44,292 nucleotides of DNA, taken from IMG/VR virus record IMGVR_UViG_2660238147_000001; one strand, given 5' to 3'. The notes under the pieces are model-generated. The model saw only the letters and a program-made list of their open reading frames with translations, was not told where the DNA came from and ran no database searches. The DNA is from a virus (lineage: Duplodnaviria > Heunggongvirae > Uroviricota > Caudoviricetes). Each line of letters begins with the position of its first letter. Positions within the stretch are counted from its first letter, which is position 1. A program made the translations under genes and the position numbers. Of this stretch, positions 1 through 44,292 are shown in pieces.

Positions 1-1119
1 TCAAATAACCAACTTAACCCATTCCTGACCTCGAGTATCGTTATAGCGATCGGTGGTTGCCTGGACTTTATGTCCTAGTAATGTTTTTGTATCGATACCC
101 TGTGCACGGTACAGCCGTTCTGATAGAGAGCGTTGTTCATGAAATGTTGGCGAAGTTTTTCCTGCTGGTGGAATTATCCCAGCCAGATCCCGTGCTTTGG
201 CAAAGTAGTCGCTCAGGTTGTCTTTACTCATCGGCTTCGGTTGTTTCTGGTGCCGACTATGGATTAGATATGGACTTAATATTCTGTCTCGGCACCCATC
301 AATAACTTCTTTTAACGTTATCCCAATGGCATCACAGCGTAGTGTAAGCGGTAACGCCAGACGCATTCCGGTTTTTCCCTGGGTGATATGCAAGTGTTCG
401 TTCCACACATCTGAAAAACGCATGTGGCAAATGTCATCACGGCGCTGACCAGTAACAATCGCAAGAAGCATTGCGTTACGGATAAAGTGTTTTTCAGGCG
501 TTGCATTGTAAATTTTTTGCCAGTCTTCCATGGTGAGCCTGGCTCTGGTTACTTTAGGGATCGGTTTACGGGTAGCCTCCGGAGGATTCCATCCAGGAGG
601 AACTTCCCCTGCATGCTGTGCTTCTTTATAAATATCAACCCATAATCCACGATTTACTCTCGCTGTGCTGACCATGTCTTTATCCAGCCACTCATCCAGT
701 ATTAATGCAAAGTCTCTTACTTCCAGTTCTTTCAATGGGTGGTTTCCCAGACGGGAAACCAGGTATGCAGCCATTCGAGTTTTTTCTTTGTGAGTTGTAG
801 CTGCAATATCTCCATTTTTCAGTCGCGTGTCCTGTATTTTCAGATATCGATCAACCCATGCCTTTAATCTGATACCCCGACGTTTTGTTGCTGACGGACT
901 TTCATCAATTTTGCGCATGAAATATTCAGCTTCTGCTGCAGCTATTCGCTGATTGGCTGTGGAAGCGATTTTTTCTGCCTTACCTTTGTCTGTTCCGAGT
1001 CCGTGAAATTTTCCAGTCACAGGATTTTTATACTGGTAGTAAACTCTGCCAGTTCTGCGATCAAACTTTTCGTAAAGACCGGCTACGTCAGTGCTGTTTT
1101 TTCGTGGCCTCGGTGACAT
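1..1119 (-). CDS. int: Tyrosine-type site-specific integrase (lambda Int-like)
   Basis: 372-aa minus-strand ORF whose stop codon is at window positions 1-3; C-terminal region (LLGHK...TDRY) fits a tyrosine recombinase catalytic domain; sits at the prophage edge next to an xis-like gene, as in attL-int-xis of lambda. Confidence 0.9.
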   Translation of the reverse strand: MSPRPRKNSTDVAGLYEKFDRRTGRVYYQYKNPVTGKFHGLGTDKGKAEKIASTANQRIAAAEAEYFMRKIDESPSATKRRGIRLKAWVDRYLKIQDTRLKNGDIAATTHKEKTRMAAYLVSRLGNHPLKELEVRDFALILDEWLDKDMVSTARVNRGLWVDIYKEAQHAGEVPPGWNPPEATRKPIPKVTRARLTMEDWQKIYNATPEKHFIRNAMLLAIVTGQRRDDICHMRFSDVWNEHLHITQGKTGMRLALPLTLRCDAIGITLKEVIDGCRDRILSPYLIHSRHQKQPKPMSKDNLSDYFAKARDLAGIIPPAGKTSPTFHEQRSLSERLYRAQGIDTKTLLGHKVQATTDRYNDTRGQEWVKLVI

Positions 1120-35955: not shown

Positions 35956-38900
35956 ATGGGAAAAGGTGGCGGTAAGGCACACACGCCTCGTGAGGCGAAG
36001 GATAATCTCAAATCCACGCAGATGATGAGTGTGATTGATGCGATTGGTGAGGGACCGATAGAAGGTCCGGTGAAGGGACTGCAGAGTATTCTGGTGAACA
36101 AAACCCCGCTGACGGACACGGACGGTAATCCCGTGATACACGGTGTGACTGCGGTCTGGCGTGCCGGGGAGCAGGAGCAGACACCACCGGAAGGCTTTGA
36201 GTCCTCCGGAGCTGAAACCGGACTGGGCGTGGAAGTGACGAAGGCAAAACCGGTGACGCGCACCATTACGTCCGCGAACATTGACCGCCTGCGGGTTACC
36301 TTCGGGGTGCAGTCACTGGTGCAGACCACGTCAAAGGGCGACCGTAATCCTTCCTCTGTCCGGATTCTGATTCAGTTACAGCGTAATGGCCGCTGGGTGA
36401 CGGAAAAGGATGTCACCATTAACGGCAAGACCACCTCGCAGTTCCTGGCCTCGGTGATTCTGGATAATCTGCCTCCCCGGCCCTTTAACATCCGGATGGT
36501 CAGGGAGACGGCGGACAGCACCACGGACCAGCTGCAGAATAAGACGCTGTGGTCGTCATACACCGAAATCATCGATGTGAAACAGTGCTACCCGAACACG
36601 GCCATTGTGGGGCTGCAGGTGGATGCGGAGCAGTTCGGCGGCCAGCAGATGACGGTGAACTACCATATCCGCGGTCGCATCATCCAGGTGCCGTCAAACT
36701 ATGACCCGGAAAAACGCACGTACAGTGGTATCTGGGACGGCAGCCTGAAACCGGCATACAGCAACAACCCGGCCTGGTGTCTGTGGGACATGCTGACTCA
36801 CCCGCGCTACGGCATGGGAAAACGTCTGGGGGCGGCGGATGTGGACAAGTGGGCGCTGTATGCCATCGGGCAGTACTGCGACCAGACGGTCCCGGATGGT
36901 TTCGGGGGGACCGAGCCGCGGATGACCTTTAATGCGTACCTGGCACAACAGCGTAAGGCGTGGGACGTTCTCAGTGATTTCTGCTCTGCGATGCGCTGTA
37001 TGCCGGTATGGAACGGCCAGACGCTGATGTTCGTTCAGGACCGTCCGTCGGATGTGGTGTGGCCGTACACCAACAGCGATGTGGTGGTGGATGATAACGG
37101 CGTGGGTTTCCGCTACAGCTTCAGTGCCCTGAAGGACCGGCACACGGCAGTGGAGGTGAATTACACCGACCCGCAGAACGGCTGGCAGACCTCCACGGAA
37201 CTGGTGGAAGACCCGGAAGCCATACTGCGCTACGGACGCAACCTGCTGAAGATGGACGCGTTCGGCTGTACCAGCCGCGGTCAGGCCCACCGTGCCGGGC
37301 TGTGGGTGATAAAGACCGAACTGCTGGAAACGCAGACGGTGGATTTCACGCTCGGGTCACAGGGGCTGCGTCACACACCCGGTGACATCATTGAAATCTG
37401 TGATAACGACTATGCCGGGACCATGACCGGCGGACGTGTCCTGTCCATCGATGCCGCCAGCCGTACCCTGACGCTGGACCGGGAGGTGACACTGCCGGAG
37501 ACCGGCACGGCCACTGTTAATCTGATTAACGGCAGCGGTAAGCCGGCGAGCGTGGCCATCACCGCACACCCCGCGCCTGACCGGATACAGGTCAGCACCC
37601 TGCCGGATGGTGTGGAGACATACGGTGTGTGGGGACTCTCCCTGCCGTCACTGCGTCGTCGCCTGTTCCGCTGTGTCTCCATTCGGGAAAACACGGACGG
37701 CACGTTCGCCATCACGGCGGTGCAGCACGTACCGGAAAAAGAAGCCATTGTGGATAACGGGGCCAGCTTTGAGCCGCAGTCAGGCAGCCTGAACAGCGTT
37801 ATCCCACCGGCAGTGCAGCACCTGACGGTGGAGGTGAGTGCAGCTGACGGTCAGTATCTGGCACAGGCGAAATGGGACACGCCGCGGGTGGTGAAGGGTG
37901 TGCGCTTCAGTCTGCGTCTGACCAGCGGAAGCGGAGAAGACAGCCGTCTGGTGAGCACCGCCATCACCGCAGACACGGAGCACCGTTTCAGTGGTCTGCC
38001 GCTGGGGGAATACACCCTGACGGTGCGGGCCATTAACAGCTACGGCCAGCAGGGCGAACCTGCGACCACCACCTTCCGGATTAACGCGCCTGCAAAACCC
38101 GCCACCATTGAGCTGACGCCGGGGTATTTTCAGATAACGGCGGTCCCGCGTCTTGCGGTGTATGACCCGACGGTACAGTTTGAATTCTGGTTCTCAGAAA
38201 AACGCATCACGAACACGGCACAGGTGGAAAAATCTGCCCGTTATCTGGGGACCGGCAGTCAGTGGACTGTCCAGGGGAGCCGGATTAAGCCGGGGACGGA
38301 TTTCTGGTTTTACGTGCGAAGCGTCAACCTGGTGGGAAAATCTGCTTTTGTGGAAGCCAGCGGGCAGCCCAGCAATGATGGTGAAGGGTATCTGGAAATT
38401 TTCCGGGGGCTGATAGATGAGACGCTTCTGGGCCAGGCACTGAAAGAGCGCATTGATGCTTCAGCGCTGCGTACGGAGGTCACGCAACTGGAAGAAGACA
38501 TCCGTCAGCGGATGGACACGGATATCGCAGAAGTGACCCGGAAAATCGGGGAGGCGGAAAACAGCCTCACGCAGCTGGTTGCGAAAAAGAATGAGGACCA
38601 GACACTGGCCATCGCGCAGGTGAGCCAGAAAGTGGACCGGGTGAGCAGTGAAATCTCACAGACTGTCAGCCAGGGGCAGTCAGAAAATGCCCGACAGATA
38701 GCACAGGTCCGCCAGTACGTGGATAAAAAAGGGAGTGAAATTACCTCGACCACGGATAAAAAACTGGGTGACCAGGCCGTGACCATACAGCAAATCCAGC
38801 GGGTTCAGTCAGACACGCGCAATGAGCTGAATGCCATGTATATGCTGAAGGTGCAGAAAACAAAAAACGGTATTCCCTATGTGGCCGGGATTGGTGCGGG

Positions 38901-39648
38901 GATTGAGGATGTTGATGGTCAGACGCTGAGCAGTATTCTGCTGCAGGCTGACCGTATCGCGATGATTACCCCGGAGAATGGCAACACCACGCCGCTGTTT
39001 GTGGCGCAGGGGAATCAGCTGTTCATGAACGACGTGTTCCTGAAGCGACTGTTTGCGGTGAGCATCACGTCATCCGGCAATCCTCCTACGTTTTCCCTGA
39101 CGCCGGATGGCAGGCTGGCAGCCCGCAATGCGGATATCAGTGGAGCCATCACGGCGAATACCGGCACGCTCAATAATGTCACCATTAACGAGAACTGTGT
39201 CATCAGAGGGAAACTGTCTGCAAACCAGATTGAAGGCGATCTCGTTAAAACAGTGGGTAAGGCTTTCCCCCGTGACTCCCGTGCACCGGAGAGGTGGCCA
39301 TCAGGGACCATTACCGTCAGGGTTTATGACGATCAGCCGTTTGACCGGCAGATTGTTATTCCGGCGGTGGCTTTCAGCGGTGCCAGACATGAGCGGGAGA
39401 ATAGCGATATTTATTCGTCATGCCGCCTGATAGTGCGGAAAAACGGTGCTGAAATTTATAACCGTACCGCGATGGATAATACGCTGGTTTACAGTGGTGT
39501 TATTGATATGCCTGCTGGTCGCGGCGACATGACGCTGGAGTTTTCTGTATCAGCATGGTGGGTAAATGGCTGGTATCCCACAGCAAGTATCAGCGATTTG
39601 CTGGTTGTTGTGATGAAGAAAGCCACTGCAGGCATCACGATTAGCTGA
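35956..39648 (+). CDS. J: Central tail fibre / host specificity protein J-like
   Basis: 1230-aa ORF; N-terminal two-thirds closely resemble lambda gpJ; ~100 aa longer than lambda J with a divergent C-terminal region. Confidence 0.9.
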
Positions 39649-39667
39649 ATTTTATAACCCCAATACG

Positions 39668-39694
39668 GGCGCCAGAAATGGCGCCTTTTTTATT
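39668..39694 (+). terminator. Rho-independent terminator downstream of J
   Basis: Stem GGCGCC / GGCGCC with AGAAAT loop, followed by TTTTTTATT. Confidence 0.65.
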
Positions 39695-39715
39695 GCAGAA
39701 AAGCGAGAGGTAATT

Positions 39716-40315
39716 ATGCGTAAATTATGTGCTGTTATTCTGTCCGCAGTAGTCTGGCTGGTTGCCGCTGGTACGCCAGCGAGCGCAGCAGAGCATCAGT
39801 CCACACTAAGCGCCGGGTATCTTCAGACCCACACTGATATGCCAGGCAGCGATAATCTGAACGGGATTAACGTGAAATACCGTTATGAGTTTACGGACGC
39901 GCTGGGGCTGATTACGTCCTTCAGTTATGCCAATGCTGAGGATGAGCAAAAAACGCACTACAGCGATACCCGCTGGCATGAAGATTCCGTGCGTAACCGC
40001 TGGTTCAGCGTGATGGCGGGGCCGTCTGTGCGCGTGAATGAATGGTTCAGTGCTTATGCGATGGCGGGTGTGGCTTACAGCCGTGTGTCGACTTTCTCCG
40101 GGGATTATCTCCGCGTAACTGACAACAAGGGGAAAACGCACGATGTGCTGACCGGAAGTGATGACGGTCGCCACAGCAATACCTCTCTGGCGTGGGGAGC
40201 TGGCGTGCAGTTTAACCCGACCGAATCCGTGGCCATTGATATTGCTTATGAAGGCTCCGGCAGTGGCGACTGGCGAACGGATGCATTTATTGTTGGTATC
40301 GGATACCGTTTCTGA
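39716..40315 (+). CDS. lom: Lom-family outer membrane protein (Ail/Lom/OmpX beta-barrel)
   Basis: 199-aa ORF with signal peptide (MRKLCAVILSAVVWLVAAGTPASA) and C-terminal aromatic residue; GAGAGG Shine-Dalgarno; flanked by terminators, consistent with a moron expressed in the lysogen. Confidence 0.85.
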   Translation: MRKLCAVILSAVVWLVAAGTPASAAEHQSTLSAGYLQTHTDMPGSDNLNGINVKYRYEFTDALGLITSFSYANAEDEQKTHYSDTRWHEDSVRNRWFSVMAGPSVRVNEWFSAYAMAGVAYSRVSTFSGDYLRVTDNKGKTHDVLTGSDDGRHSNTSLAWGAGVQFNPTESVAIDIAYEGSGSGDWRTDAFIVGIGYRF

Positions 40316-40420
40316 CAACAGACGCCGATTTATCTTCTGTAAATATTGTTATGATACGCAGGTTCATCCGCCTTATGGGGTGAACTGCGTTTGAGGAAAC
40401 GTAAAGTTACACTGTCCTGA

Positions 40421-40455
40421 AGCCCGTGGCGTCACTGCTGCGGGCTTTTTTTATT
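40421..40455 (+). terminator. Rho-independent terminator downstream of lom
   Basis: Stem AGCCCG / CGGGCT with a 14-nt loop, followed by TTTTTTTATT. Confidence 0.55.
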
Positions 40456-40466
40456 GGTGGAAAAGT

Positions 40467-42530
40467 ATGACAGTAAAAATTTCTGGCGTGCTTAAAGATG
40501 GCACAGGAAAACCAGTACAGAACTGCACCATTGTGCTGAAGGCCAGACGGACCAGCAGCACGGTGGTGGTGAACACGGTGGCCTCTGAAAATCCGGATGA
40601 AGCCGGGCGTTACAGCATGGATGTTGAGTATGGCCAGTACAGCGTCACCCTGCTGGTTGAAGATTTTCCGCCTTCACATGCCGGGACCATTACCGTCTAT
40701 GAAGGTTCCAGACCAGGTACGCTGAATGATTTTCTCGGCGCCATGACGGAGGATGATGTTCGTCCGGAGGCACTGCGCCGTTTTGAGCTGATGGTGAATG
40801 AAGTGGCACGTCATGCCGGAGCGTCATCACAGAGTGCAGCGGCGGCAAAGAAATCCGAAACGGCAGCAGCCTCATCGAAGAATGCGGCGAAAACCTCAGA
40901 AACGAATGCAGCTAACAGCGCACAGGCGGCAGCGGCCTCGCAGACTGCATCGGCAAACTCCGCGACAGCAGCCAAAAAATCAGAAACCAGCGCGAAAAAT
41001 AGCGAGACAGCCACAAAGGCCAGCGAAAAAAACGCAAAATCCAGCCAGACGGCAGCGAAAACCAGTGAGACGAATGCCAAAGACAGTGAAGCCAACGCAA
41101 AGGTGAGCGAAACAGCGGCGGCGAACTCGGCGAAAGCATCGGCAGCAAGCCAGACGGCAGCAAAAGCAAGTGAAGATGCTGCCAGAGAATACGCAAACCA
41201 GACAGCAGAGCCGTACAGATATGTTTTACAGCCGCTGCCGGATGTGTGGATACCCTTTAATGATTCGCTGGATATGATTACGGGCTATTCTCCGGGTTAT
41301 AAAAAAGTGAAGATTGGTGATAATGTGGTTCAGGTTGCCAGTGATAAACAGGTTAATTTCAGTCGCGCATCAACGGCAACATATATCAACAAATCTGGCG
41401 AACTGAAAACGGCGGAAATTAATGAGCCGCGATTTGAGTGTGATGGCCTGCTTATTGAGGGACAAAGAACGAACTTCTTCCAGAACAGTACAGACCCTTC
41501 GAAGTGGAATAAGTCAACTTCACTGGACGTTACAGAAACAGGCACAGATAGTTTCGGGTTTAATTATGGTCGGTTTGTCGTACAGGATTCGATTGTTGGT
41601 ACAAGTAAAGCGCATACCATTATCGGACTGTATTCGAGTACCGGAGGGGTTGATACTTCAGGGGACGAAAAGCATGTAACTATATCCTGTCGGGTAAAAA
41701 GTGAAGTTGATAATATCGCCGTTCGTATTTTATTTGAACATTATGATGGGGAGGTAAGGACATCAATAGGAGCAGCAAACCTGAACCTTACCACCCGCAT
41801 AATTAGCAAGACAGGTCAGACAAGCCGTGTTACAGCAAGGTCTGTTAAGGATGATGCAACTGGCTGGATATTTTTTGAGGCTACATTAAAAGCAGATACA
41901 ACAGAAAATACGGTTGGTGGTTTTGTCCAGTATTCTCCGGATACAGGGCAGATGGTTACATCAGGGGATTATCTCGATGTAACCACTCCACAGATTGAGG
42001 CTGGTACAGGCGCATCATCTTTTATTGTTACGGGGACGGCACCGGCAACGCGGGCAAGCGATATGGTGACAGTCCCAATCAAGAATAACCTTTATAATCT
42101 TCCTTTTACGGTTCTTTGTGAGGTACATAAGAACTGGTATAAAACGCCAAATGTAGCGCCGCGTGTTTTTGATACCGGCGGTCATCAAACCGGAGCGGGG
42201 ATCGTAATGGGGTTTGGTTCATCAGGTGGGTACGACGGTTTTCCGTATTGCGATATAGGTGGTTCAGACCGACGAATAAATGAAAATGCCGGGCTGGAAA
42301 AAATGCTTATTGGTATGCGGGTAAAGTCCGAACGGTCCACATGTGTAGTCAGTAACGGTAAGTTAAGCAGCGAAACTAAAACCAAATGGGAATATATCCG
42401 GAGTACAGCAACCATTCGCATTGGTGGACAAACTACAGCAGGATTACGCCATTTATTTGGGCATGTGAGGAATTTTCGTCTCTGGCATAAAGAGCTAACA
42501 GATGCGCAGCTTGGGGAGGTTGTGGAGTGA
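40467..42530 (+). CDS. stf: Side tail fibre protein (lambda Stf-like N-terminus, distinct C-terminal receptor-binding region)
   Basis: 687-aa ORF; N-terminus MTVKISGVLKDGTGKPVQNCTIVLKARR resembles lambda Stf; central Ala/Ser/Lys/Thr-rich repeats; C-terminal ~370 aa unlike the lambda Stf C-terminus, ending in a motif reminiscent of lectin/LamG-like jelly-roll domains (FGHVRNFRLWHKELTDAQLGEV). Confidence 0.8.
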   Translation: MTVKISGVLKDGTGKPVQNCTIVLKARRTSSTVVVNTVASENPDEAGRYSMDVEYGQYSVTLLVEDFPPSHAGTITVYEGSRPGTLNDFLGAMTEDDVRPEALRRFELMVNEVARHAGASSQSAAAAKKSETAAASSKNAAKTSETNAANSAQAAAASQTASANSATAAKKSETSAKNSETATKASEKNAKSSQTAAKTSETNAKDSEANAKVSETAAANSAKASAASQTAAKASEDAAREYANQTAEPYRYVLQPLPDVWIPFNDSLDMITGYSPGYKKVKIGDNVVQVASDKQVNFSRASTATYINKSGELKTAEINEPRFECDGLLIEGQRTNFFQNSTDPSKWNKSTSLDVTETGTDSFGFNYGRFVVQDSIVGTSKAHTIIGLYSSTGGVDTSGDEKHVTISCRVKSEVDNIAVRILFEHYDGEVRTSIGAANLNLTTRIISKTGQTSRVTARSVKDDATGWIFFEATLKADTTENTVGGFVQYSPDTGQMVTSGDYLDVTTPQIEAGTGASSFIVTGTAPATRASDMVTVPIKNNLYNLPFTVLCEVHKNWYKTPNVAPRVFDTGGHQTGAGIVMGFGSSGGYDGFPYCDIGGSDRRINENAGLEKMLIGMRVKSERSTCVVSNGKLSSETKTKWEYIRSTATIRIGGQTTAGLRHLFGHVRNFRLWHKELTDAQLGEVVE

Positions 42531-42805
42531 GAGATTTCACGTTGCGTTTCAGTGATAAAGCAGATTTCAGGGCATTTCTCAGGAAACTTAACTGGGAAGA
42601 GGACGAAGAGCTGCAGAATGCCGTTCTGGTTGATGAGATTGGTTTTACGTTCAGGGAGACAGATGTTTCTGATGACGGAGAACCAGAATACACGCGAAAC
42701 GAAGGGTACTTTGTTAATATCCGTCTTCTTGACGATGGATTTGAGGATTCCGTGTTCCGTGAGTGGGTGGTTACACCAGAGCGCCCGCTCAGGGAGTGGT
42801 TTTAA
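42527..42805 (+). CDS. Hypothetical protein, possible tail-fibre chaperone (non-Tfa type)
   Basis: 92-aa acidic ORF with GTG start overlapping the stf stop (GTGA); role inferred only from position. Confidence 0.4.
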   Translation: MRDFTLRFSDKADFRAFLRKLNWEEDEELQNAVLVDEIGFTFRETDVSDDGEPEYTRNEGYFVNIRLLDDGFEDSVFREWVVTPERPLREWF

Positions 42806-42814
42806 GGATAGCAG

Positions 42815-43108
42815 ATGGATATCACGTCGATACTTCATGCGCTTTGTGCCGTGGCGGTGCAGGTACTGGCTGGTCTTTTTACCGGAAACTGGGCTTACGG
42901 GGCGATAGCCGGTTGTACGTTCTTCATTGCGCGTGAACACACCCAGGCAGAATATCGCTGGATTGAAATGTTCGGGCATGGCAAGCGGATTAACATGCCG
43001 TGGTGGGGCGGTTTTGATCCACGTGCATGGGATGTGGCAAGCCTGATGGATTTTGCTGTGCCGGTGGTGGCGTGTCTGCTGGTCTGGCTGTTGGTTAATC
43101 GTGGGTGA
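42815..43108 (+). CDS. Hypothetical small membrane protein
   Basis: 97-aa ORF with two to three hydrophobic segments and a Trp-rich segment; no family recognised. Confidence 0.4.
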   Translation: MDITSILHALCAVAVQVLAGLFTGNWAYGAIAGCTFFIAREHTQAEYRWIEMFGHGKRINMPWWGGFDPRAWDVASLMDFAVPVVACLLVWLLVNRG

Positions 43109-43117
43109 AAAAGGTGA

Positions 43118-43246
43118 GCAGTATATGCAACGAAGGAGGAAACATCATTGCTGGCGGCATGGAAGGCATGCAGGGTGTTGCTGAACCGTGTTGATACATC
43201 AACTGCACCTGATATTGAGTGGCCTACGAACCCTGTCAGGGAGTAA
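43118..43246 (+). pseudogene. tfa: Remnant of tail fibre assembly gene (tfa 3' end)
   Basis: Open frame without a start encoding ...[39 protein letters not shown], matching the C-terminus of lambda-type Tfa as I recall; shares a 38-bp identical block with the tfa-like gene at 44026..44292. Confidence 0.55.
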
Positions 43247-43300
43247 TCATTGGGATTATGCCGCAGCACGTCTTAAGCAAGAACGTGCTGCGGTTGGATG

Positions 43301-43966
43301 CTATTTTTTCCCTGAAGCGGAAAACATTACTACAGTACCTTGAACCTTGGTTTTAACATTCTCGAAATGCTCTGAGAGTATATGTGTTAAGCCTTCTTCG
43401 GAATCTTTTGTGTTTGAAAAGATGCCTTTCTGATTGTAAATGCGCATCAGTTTTTGACCGAAGCTATTGTGCACAACGCCGTCACCAAGAATTGTGGCTC
43501 CGTATAGAGTTCCATCGTCAGTTAAGGCCTGCGCCGCATTGCGTATTACACAGCTTTTTGTAGATATATTTCCAGGCAGGCAGTGAAGAAGGTAAAACAT
43601 GGAAATGGAATCAAATTGACCATGTAACGCCGCGGGATAAGGATCAAAAACATCATGGCTAATTTTATGTTTAATTTTTGATTCCCCAGCCCTTGTCGAT
43701 GCCGCGTTCAGGCTAGCTTCGTTCAAATCCATTAAAGATATCAGACTGCTCTCAGGTACGTGAGTAAGGTAAAACCCAGTTCCAACGCCAATATCCAGAT
43801 GGTTGTTACCTAAATGTTCCAGAAAGTGTGGAAGAAGGTGTTCCTTTGTAGGACATCCCCATGCAAGCCGATTTGATACTCCCAAAACCCACCAGTCATA
43901 AAGCTTTAGGGTAAGTGGTGTGTAAATTTTAGCCCCATCATCTGTGTTTTTTTTCATTAGTTTCAC
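43301..43966 (-). CDS. Class I SAM-dependent methyltransferase (YbcY-like)
   Basis: 221-aa minus-strand ORF with motif I LDIGVGTGFY; low-GC gene between two tfa 3' fragments; not obviously a DNA methyltransferase. Confidence 0.65.
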   Translation of the reverse strand: MKLMKKNTDDGAKIYTPLTLKLYDWWVLGVSNRLAWGCPTKEHLLPHFLEHLGNNHLDIGVGTGFYLTHVPESSLISLMDLNEASLNAASTRAGESKIKHKISHDVFDPYPAALHGQFDSISMFYLLHCLPGNISTKSCVIRNAAQALTDDGTLYGATILGDGVVHNSFGQKLMRIYNQKGIFSNTKDSEEGLTHILSEHFENVKTKVQGTVVMFSASGKK

Positions 43967-44025
43967 CGTATTATAGTTTTATTTGTGAATTAAATCAATT
44001 ATGGCGATGAATTACAAGGGGTTAA

Positions 44026-44292
44026 ATGCTGCCGCAGCATAGCGATATTGAAATAGCCTGGTATGCTTCGATACAGCAGGAGCCGAATGGCTGGAAGACC
44101 GTCACCACACAGTTCTACATCCAGGAATTCAGTGAGTATATTGCGCCACTGCAGGATGCTGTAGATCTGGAAATCGCAACGGAGGAAGAAAGATCGTTGC
44201 TGGAGGCATGGAATAAATATCGGGTATTGTTGAATCGTGTTGATACATCAACTGCACCTGATATTGAGTGGCCGACTTCACCTGCAGAGTAA
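44026..44292 (+). CDS. Tail fibre assembly protein C-terminal-domain protein (short Tfa-like)
   Basis: 88-aa ORF ending at the window edge with a stop codon; C-terminal half ([45 protein letters not shown]) matches the conserved Tfa C-terminus; too short for a full Tfa. Confidence 0.55.

Follow-up and report, generated by a model that had tools for sequence, protein, structure and literature searches.

In Escherichia coli K-12 MG1655, the cryptic prophage DLP12 carries a long-annotated block, tfaD–ybcY–tfaX (b0561–b0563), in which the methyltransferase-type gene ybcY stands between two 3' ends of the tail fibre assembly gene tfa. The present analysis concerned the corresponding ybcY–tfaX cassette at the right end of IMG/VR virus record IMGVR_UViG_2660238147_000001, whose whole stretch of 44,292 nucleotides is referred to below as the window. 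Positions 43127-44272 of the window were collinear with the tfaD 3' end, ybcY and tfaX of MG1655 (581.9-583.1 kb) in one blastn alignment of 1146 bp at 95.7% identity. The same genes were found in the same order and orientation; the hairpin and the divergent promoter spacer were shared too, as was the chimeric start of tfaX. The cassette is thus already known and is a very common feature of E. coli prophages; a search of 5426 complete E. coli genomes detected the methyltransferase gene with its immediate flanks in 3838 of them (about 70%).

Differences from DLP12 were found in the genes and in both flanks. K-12 has ybcY as a pseudogene and a tfaX cut to 61 amino acids (aa), whereas the methyltransferase gene of the window is intact. 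The left copy in DLP12 retains more of tfa and is joined to remnants of terminase, while in the window it is a 42-codon relic behind a fibre module of the phage-21 type. On the right, the block is followed by appY–ompT in DLP12 and by attR and the host gene potB in the prophage analyzed here.

Lambdoid morons and cargo loci, such as the lambda b region and the exchangeable effector loci of enterohaemorrhagic and enteropathogenic E. coli, are well-known points of comparison. The unit in the window is likewise self-contained, with its own predicted promoter and a terminator-like hairpin; it has a lower GC content, would be transcribed against the late operon, and lies between tfa and attP/attR. 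The moron traits seen comprised the promoter-like site (10 of 12 consensus positions), the strong hairpin and the lower GC, and the unit was absent from sister prophages and from phage 21. In contrast to effector loci, which carry effectors or toxins, the cargo here is a metabolic-type methyltransferase.

The invertible Gin/Pin/Cin segments (Mu G, e14 P, P1 C) also adjoin duplicated tail-fibre or tfa sequences at the end of the tail operon. They consist, however, of inverted repeats with an adjacent serine invertase and alternative complete sets of stf-C and tfa, whereas the window has direct repeats, no invertase, and a mere fragment as the second copy. In experiments with a substrate of the same kind, lambda captured markers placed in the stf–tfa homology of Rac and Qin by means of Red-beta/RecA, even at 88% identity (De Paepe et al. 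2014, PMC3945230), and these exchanges used perfect stretches of 49 bp or less (PMC3945230). The DLP12 tfaD/tfaX repeats and ybcY were not used in that study, and the repeats considered here are only about 100-220 bp.

With a probability of roughly 85%, two independently mobile modules have been joined in the window through the conserved tfa 3' end, and the 1049-bp ybcY–tfaX unit is inserted, deleted or re-flanked by homologous recombination.

The two tfa ends and the unit between them

The features of the cassette were as follows.

43118..43247, plus strand: left repeat (R1), what remains of a tfa 3' end (42 codons and a stop, no start codon)
43187-43224, plus strand: 38-bp core of the left repeat, where the similarity of a cassette-free allele switches
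43260..43294, no strand assigned: terminator-like hairpin between the convergent tfa relic and methyltransferase gene, with a T run 12 nt later
43301..43957, minus strand: intact ybcY-type class I S-adenosylmethionine (SAM)-dependent methyltransferase, 218 aa (GTG-extended version to 43966)
43970..43998, minus strand: predicted sigma-70-like promoter of the methyltransferase, TTGATT-17-TATAAT, 10 of 12 consensus matches, in an AT-rich divergent spacer
44026..44292, plus strand: tfaX-type chimeric open reading frame (ORF), 88 aa (phrog_2341 over its full length, phrog_3893 on residues 3-37)
44236-44273, plus strand: 38-bp core of the right repeat (R2), exactly identical to the left core

A preliminary description of this locus had reported the 38-bp direct block, and this was confirmed exactly. 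The sequence CGTGTTGATACATCAACTGCACCTGATATTGAGTGGCC is present in both cores in the same orientation, with identity lost at the very next base to the left and to the right, and is enclosed by a 101-nt direct repeat (43127-43227 and 44176-44276, 85% identity, spacing 1049 bp). By our estimate, the expectation for chance recurrence of a 38-mer in about 6 kb is near 1e-16. Within 38000-44292, inverted repeats did not exceed 28 nt, and none involved the tfa ends. The description had also placed a low-GC, minus-strand methyltransferase gene between the repeats, in agreement with the intact ORF and with GC values of 0.37-0.455 over 43300-44099, compared to 0.50-0.55 over 42600-43299.

Both repeats matched the Pfam family Caudo_TAP (PF02413) only at its C-terminal end, R1 at positions 95-130 of the 131 in the hidden Markov model (E 2e-14) and R2 at positions 75-131 (E 4e-25). 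Tfa proteins reportedly consist of a variable, fibre-binding N-terminal domain and a conserved C-terminal domain. Neither R1, which has no start codon, nor TfaX, whose N-terminus is unrelated, was a full-length two-domain Tfa, and the annotation pipeline PGAP recorded R1 and tfaX alike as N-terminally shortened pseudogenes. The earlier view that both repeats are plain tfa 3' ends held for R1, whereas R2 forms part of the chimeric tfaX, and the right copy alone is the constant partner of the methyltransferase.

R1 is in frame with the preceding 97-aa ORF, with two stop codons between them. In the alignment of copies, its distal part (43173-43247) was of the ybcY-linked type, and it ended in the DLP12-type terminus '...GGCCTACGAACCCTGTCAGGGAGTAA', with the hairpin next. 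R2 ended in '...GGCCGACTTCACCTGCAGAGTAA' (WPTSPAE*), and this terminus with the attR flank was common to R2 of the window and both cassette-free alleles described below. At 43149-43172, R1 carries the patch GGCGGCATGGAAGGCATGCAGG, where the other copies examined have GGAAGCCTGGAAAAAGTATCGG or a close variant. This 22-nt patch was seen only in nine window-like loci and may represent clustered pseudogene decay or a small conversion tract from another source.

The chimeric nature of tfaX was evident from its two halves. Codons 1 to about 33 belong to an unrelated family of 79-aa phage ORFs, and the tfa C-terminal domain (R2) runs from 44119. The first 37 aa were 51% identical to the 79-aa ORF of Klebsiella phage Kp4882-3, and residues 27-88 showed 82% identity to an intact Tfa of 193 aa. 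Since the start of TfaX and the tfa end have different sources, the left edge of R2 (about 44119) was interpreted as an old illegitimate fusion. The last 19 bases of tfaX and the downstream flank corresponded to the native tfa end of the potB phage. We infer that a divergent ybcY/orf79 pair behind the tfa of one phage was joined inside the tfa of another; this step would have created two direct tfa ends, with ordinary homologous recombination acting thereafter. A DinI-like N-terminus of TfaX was considered and rejected, as the weak tblastn match in phage Eeyore sits opposite the strand of the annotated DinI gene. NCBIfam gave no match for TfaX.

The hairpin was detected by folding (RNA fold -30.7 kcal/mol, z = -4.9), while a consensus terminator scan found nothing in 42400-44292. 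It was present at every methyltransferase locus, and at loci without an adjacent tfa, homology to the window began at 43261, within the hairpin. The spacer homologous to the promoter region in K-12 (TTGATT-17-TATAAC) was recovered by genomic SELEX (systematic evolution of ligands by exponential enrichment) as an RpoD holoenzyme site with H-NS binding (PMC3946193). As a minor observation, the 10-nt word TGCCGCAGCA occurs at 43259-43268, at the hairpin start, and at 44030-44039, at the start of the tfaX ORF, and so lies near both ends of the non-tfa insert. This is compatible with chance, about one such match being expected when 1 kb is compared with 1 kb.

The composition of the unit was surveyed in 80 IMG/VR prophage loci encoding the methyltransferase. 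To the right of the gene, 78 loci had the beginning of tfaX and then a tfa 3' end. The left neighbour varied: it was a tfa of full-length type at 38 loci, the 97-aa gene together with the relic at 17 and a shorter relic at 13, while at 12 loci no tfa adjoined the gene. Because the right partner and the hairpin are constant while the left neighbour varies, the constant unit consists of the hairpin, ybcY, the promoter spacer and tfaX, and the left repeat is supplied by the tfa end of the particular resident phage. The right repeat continued, at many loci, across another copy of the hairpin spacer, so that the repeats reached about 220 bp. Resemblance to R2 of the window ended at positions that differed by lineage (115, 132, 154-158 and 174), a pattern of homologous rather than site-specific exchange.

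Individual phages gave further arrangements, and the methyltransferase block was also seen in plaque-forming ones. Phage ev243 had exactly the arrangement and junction of the window, and PhiR26_1 carried stf, an intact tfa (194 aa), ybcY and a partial tfa, then a hydrolase gene and ompT. In phage Kati (L005, 3354-3944), a serine DNA invertase and small ORFs part tfa from ybcY–tfaX, and homology to the window starts at the hairpin (43261). Phage Ayreon was considered as an empty site and rejected, being a decayed cassette (L086, 3282-3617) in which the methyltransferase body (43337-43995) is deleted; there remain 36 nt from the 3' end of the methyltransferase gene, a portion of the promoter spacer and the beginning of tfaX, with no right-hand tfa end. 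In phage 2B8 (L103, 1919-4738), a 79-aa tfa fragment lies among type III secretion effector genes (NleG, EspM2, Ibe) past the tail fibre genes, so that cargo of another kind adjoins a tfa end at the corresponding position.

Allelic states at potB and proposed exchange through tfa ends

The window is a CFT073-type lambdoid prophage integrated at potB. Its sequence was 100% identical to finished chromosomes of extraintestinal pathogenic E. coli, for example 'clone D i14', and CFT073 had the same right-end junction. In finished chromosomes potB is the next gene, about 230 bp past the end of the window, which places the cassette in the attR-proximal 'b-region' of the prophage.

An artificial sequence, as expected from a crossover between R1 and R2, was built and searched against all complete genomes (5426). 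It matched the chromosome of strain T309.Ta3, from a horse, in a single contiguous piece. At potB this strain carries stf, the 92-aa and 97-aa genes, one relic and attR, without the methyltransferase. A second cassette-free state was found in O104:H4, with stf (930 aa), an intact tfa (193 aa) and attR, and the third state is that of the window, with the 97-aa gene, R1, the methyltransferase and tfaX. In the alignment, the single copy of T309.Ta3 resembled the left repeat upstream of the 38-bp core and the right repeat downstream of it. Such a hybrid, switching at the core, indicates that the 1049-bp unit was gained or lost by homologous recombination in the tfa end. The comparison of related prophages that had been proposed earlier thus revealed a presence/absence polymorphism, and the suggestion that the direct repeats mark a junction for cargo insertion or exchange was borne out, the potB prophage existing also without the cassette and with a hybrid single tfa end.

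The left flank has a counterpart in phage 21 (OL657228), where stf (686 aa), the 92-aa and 97-aa genes and the tfa relic follow one another; over 42446-43183, the DNA was about 77% identical. Its relic is cut at 43183, just ahead of the 38-bp core, and opposite-strand SitDCBA cargo (an iron/manganese transporter) takes the place of ybcY–tfaX. Given this set in phage 21, R1 was interpreted as what was left behind when, in an older event, this module replaced the distal stf together with the 5' part of tfa.

In the mechanism proposed, the first module, consisting of phage-21-type stf, the 92-aa ORF and the 97-aa gene, would have replaced distal stf and the 5' part of tfa, leaving R1. The second would be the ybcY–tfaX moron, with the hairpin, the opposite-strand methyltransferase gene under its sigma-70 promoter, and the chimeric tfaX bearing R2. 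As every lambdoid tfa ends nearly alike, encoding the conserved Tfa C-terminal domain, R1 and R2 could serve as portable homology, and recombination of a resident tfa end with either copy would move the 1049-bp unit. Exchange would be carried out by RecA or by phage Red/Rad52-type recombinases. The data show directly the collinearity with DLP12, the presence and absence alleles at one locus, the hybrid nature of the single copy, the variable left and constant right partners, and purifying selection on the methyltransferase; the enzymes of the exchange, its direction (gain over loss in this lineage), expression in the lysogen and the type of substrate are inferred.

Several observations weigh against this interpretation. 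Flanking by two repeats is common and not obligatory, as seen from the 12 of 80 loci without a left tfa. The cassette-free allele with the 97-aa gene was found in just 1 of 5426 genomes, so turnover at the locus is rare. The 22-nt patch of R1 was absent from the cassette-free allele, so that T309.Ta3 did not arise from exactly the window sequence by a simple, recent deletion. The alleles fit gain and loss alike, and the functions ascribed here to promoter and hairpin are predictions. With regard to direction, the sequence ahead of the core in the cassette-free alleles is the commoner one, and the 22-nt patch found there in the window lineage is private to it; for this reason we lean towards gain over loss in the window lineage.

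Two other explanations of the repeats were weighed against homologous exchange. Short dispersed repeats, such as tfa 3' ends (at about three places per E. coli genome), can mislead assemblers into a duplication or collapse of what is really one tfa, and an assembly duplication had been named in advance as part of the finding that would overturn the preliminary description. Such an artefact has a virtually negligible probability. The two copies differ at 15% of the repeat positions outside the core and have different flanks, and the same structure was found in sequenced phage isolates, in K-12 MG1655 and in many finished chromosomes: at least 80% of a 1.8-kb query was covered in 326 genomes, and many independently finished ones were 100% identical. 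Movement of the cassette by a site-specific recombinase, either a deletase or resolvase of the Pin/Gin family or an integrase, with the 38-bp block as the crossover site, was judged very improbable. The block is compact, and invertases do occur in related tail-fibre regions, between tfa and ybcY in Kati and beside the tail fibre gene in Eeyore. In the window, however, tblastn with the Kati invertase gave no serine invertase (best E 0.085 over 32 aa), and a lambda-type integrase was the sole recombinase among the ORFs scanned. The homology ends of R1 and R2 fall at many positions, and the 38-bp block is, from the aligned copies, simply the most conserved coding stretch of every tfa. The earlier conclusion that the locus is not a Gin/Pin-type invertible segment was thus upheld on two grounds, the direct orientation of the repeats and the lack of a serine invertase in the window.

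Under the reading of homologous exchange, the locus offers a worked example of one prophage at one attachment site in three allelic states, with the conserved tfa 3' end as portable homology for fibre modules and cargo. The pseudogenes annotated in E. coli as 'partial tail fiber assembly protein' become readable as recombination scars and not as errors.

TfaX and the methyltransferase YbcY

The assignment of the 218-aa protein to class I SAM-dependent methyltransferases, made earlier from the sequence, was confirmed by family profiles and by the structure model. Pfam scores exceeded the cut-offs for Methyltransf_12 (37.5 bits vs. 30), Methyltransf_23 (28.7 vs. 27) and Methyltransf_11 (24.4 vs. 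21.2), and phrog_2132 was matched over the full length. The DNA was 97.8% identical to the ybcY region of K-12. Motif I, LDIGVGTG, occupies residues 54-61, in which D55, G57, G59 and G61 were invariant across 34 homologues, as was D77 at the end of strand 72-77. As is usual for this fold, motif I and D77 would act in SAM binding. The AlphaFold model (predicted local distance difference test score, pLDDT, 91) had a Rossmann-like alternating beta/alpha fold, and its nearest folds were small-molecule, natural-product and phospholipid methyltransferases.

Other searches were less informative. With NCBIfam, only far-sub-threshold matches were obtained, to PmtA (17.7 bits vs. a cut-off of 390), CpaM and RquA, and a sequence search of the PDB gave weak generic matches only (JHAMT, UbiG). 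PADLOC yielded nothing useful, and a literature search on ybcY, tfaX and tfaD found incidental mentions and no functional study.

The gene has been maintained. Its ORF was intact in 84 of the 85 loci examined, with seven protein variants, and the segregating changes comprised 15 synonymous and 7 non-synonymous ones, with pairwise ratios of non-synonymous to synonymous substitution rates (dN/dS) of 0.03-0.29; this synonymous excess shows purifying selection. Homologues at 56-70% identity are widespread in Enterobacterales. In Salmonella, Enterobacter and Yersinia, they stand alone on the chromosome outside any phage context, and the phage ybcY therefore looks like a captured host gene.

Strains of uropathogenic E. 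coli such as CFT073 carry two intact copies of ybcY. A second copy was also observed in the same host as the window (clone D i14, NC_017652.1, 627.9-630.9 kb), at the argU tRNA gene. This locus is a remnant of DLP12, cut down to int'–tfa'–ybcY–ompT, in which ybcY stays intact even after such shrinkage. In the comparison with 43130-44052, its methyltransferase gene differed from that of the window by 2 nt and 1 aa (Q206K), as against 6-10 nt for other lineages, while its flanks were about 10% different from those of the window. These values suggest exchange or conversion between the two copies together with selection to keep ybcY and ompT, and the argU copy in the same chromosome is a possible donor of the window ybcY.

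As regards the functions of the two genes, alternatives were considered for both. TfaX might be a working short Tfa-like protein encoded divergently from ybcY, acting as a chaperone of phage-21-type fibres or as a decoy against superinfecting lambdoid phages, with ybcY–tfaX as a selected two-gene unit; we regard this as quite improbable. It would account for the company tfaX keeps with the methyltransferase (78 of 80 loci), for the open frames of 88-101 aa in most copies, and for the mostly synonymous older differences between haplotypes; in addition, the K-12 spacer has an RpoD SELEX site toward tfaX (PMC3946193), and a macroarray listed ylcE/tfaX as 2.55-fold induced in mixed biofilm (PMC3646849). 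However, TfaX lacks the N-terminal, fibre-binding half of Tfa and has a start fused from an unrelated ORF. Its C-terminus varies by lineage (...ANPVRE, ...TSPAE, ...EEPDTM or an unrelated 27-aa tail), several copies, that of K-12 included, are cut to 28-68 aa, and recent singleton changes were mostly non-synonymous and close to neutral. Phage 21 and T309.Ta3 carry the same fibre module without tfaX, and the argU copy has kept the methyltransferase and just 26 nt of tfaX. The older synonymous excess, for its part, can come from functional tfa donors.

For YbcY, a role as a nucleic-acid methyltransferase, in restriction protection of phage DNA or in epigenetic control, appears highly unlikely. 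Phage-borne orphan DNA methyltransferases are common, and PADLOC returned a faint match to mad2 (E 0.004, 13.9 bits). The family and fold of YbcY disfavour this role: neither membership in DNA-methylase families nor their catalytic motifs were found, and no DNA methyltransferase was among the fold matches listed. Judged by the model, YbcY is probably not a DNA methyltransferase and probably acts on a small-molecule or lipid substrate. A wider proposal, which we consider unlikely if conceivable, is that YbcY is a host-derived small-molecule or lipid methyltransferase that was captured by lambdoid phages and effectively domesticated by E. coli, with purifying selection keeping it intact in about 70% of genomes. 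Its target in the lysogen would be part of the envelope or of metabolism, such as a phospholipid head group as with PmtA-type enzymes, and the conserved tfa 3' end would provide the docking homology for cargo hopping between the lambdoid prophages of a cell. The residual interest of the locus lies in the role of this conserved and selected protein, whose gene is a pseudogene in K-12, the strain of most genetics.

The fibre module and the prophage around it

The window represents a complete lambdoid prophage, with a lambda-type integrase, a repressor, a lysis gene and tail genes. The features outside the cassette were as follows.

1-1119, minus strand: lambda-type integrase
35956-39648: J, in the tail end of the prophage
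39716-40315: lom, in the tail end of the prophage
40467..42530, plus strand: side tail fibre gene stf, 687 aa, phage-21 type (Pfam phage_tail_N, E 1e-67)
42527..42805, plus strand: 92-aa ORF, with a GTG start that overlaps the stop codon of stf (full-length match to phrog_1361, E 1e-40; phage 21 homologue CPT_21_23)
42815..43108, plus strand: 97-aa small membrane protein, outside the repeats (phrog_1443, E 6e-58)

The window starts exactly at the end of the integrase ORF and stops exactly at the stop codon of tfaX, so that attR and the junction with potB fall outside it.

The N-terminal part of stf is a conserved prophage tail-fibre domain, and phrog_1419 matched residues 205-686. From about 41200, the distal part is a different receptor-binding module, where GC falls to about 0.43, compared to about 0.55 before it. 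The 92-aa ORF matched none of the families in Pfam, NCBIfam and PADLOC, and the 97-aa protein none in NCBIfam.

The preliminary description had noted a 97-aa membrane protein gene just upstream and counted it in the cassette. Its position was correct, and both ends of the protein are strongly hydrophobic (about residues 1-24 and 73-96). In phage 21, the homologue bears the annotation 'putative membrane protein'. The inclusion of the gene in the cassette did not hold, since phage 21 has the same gene set and relic without ybcY, which assigns the 97-aa gene to a separate, older phage-21-type module. The gene was found in 1909 E. coli genomes, where it often lacked the 92-aa gene as a companion and sometimes lay apart from ybcY, and in 72 phage records, among them those of Aeromonas and Halomonas phages.

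The 97-aa protein is translated in the late operon directly after the tail-fibre genes, a position that may be likened to that of genes for receptor masking or superinfection exclusion, for example cor or T5 llp. Distant homologues of the protein likewise adjoin tail-fibre or tfa genes in Aeromonas and Halomonas phages.

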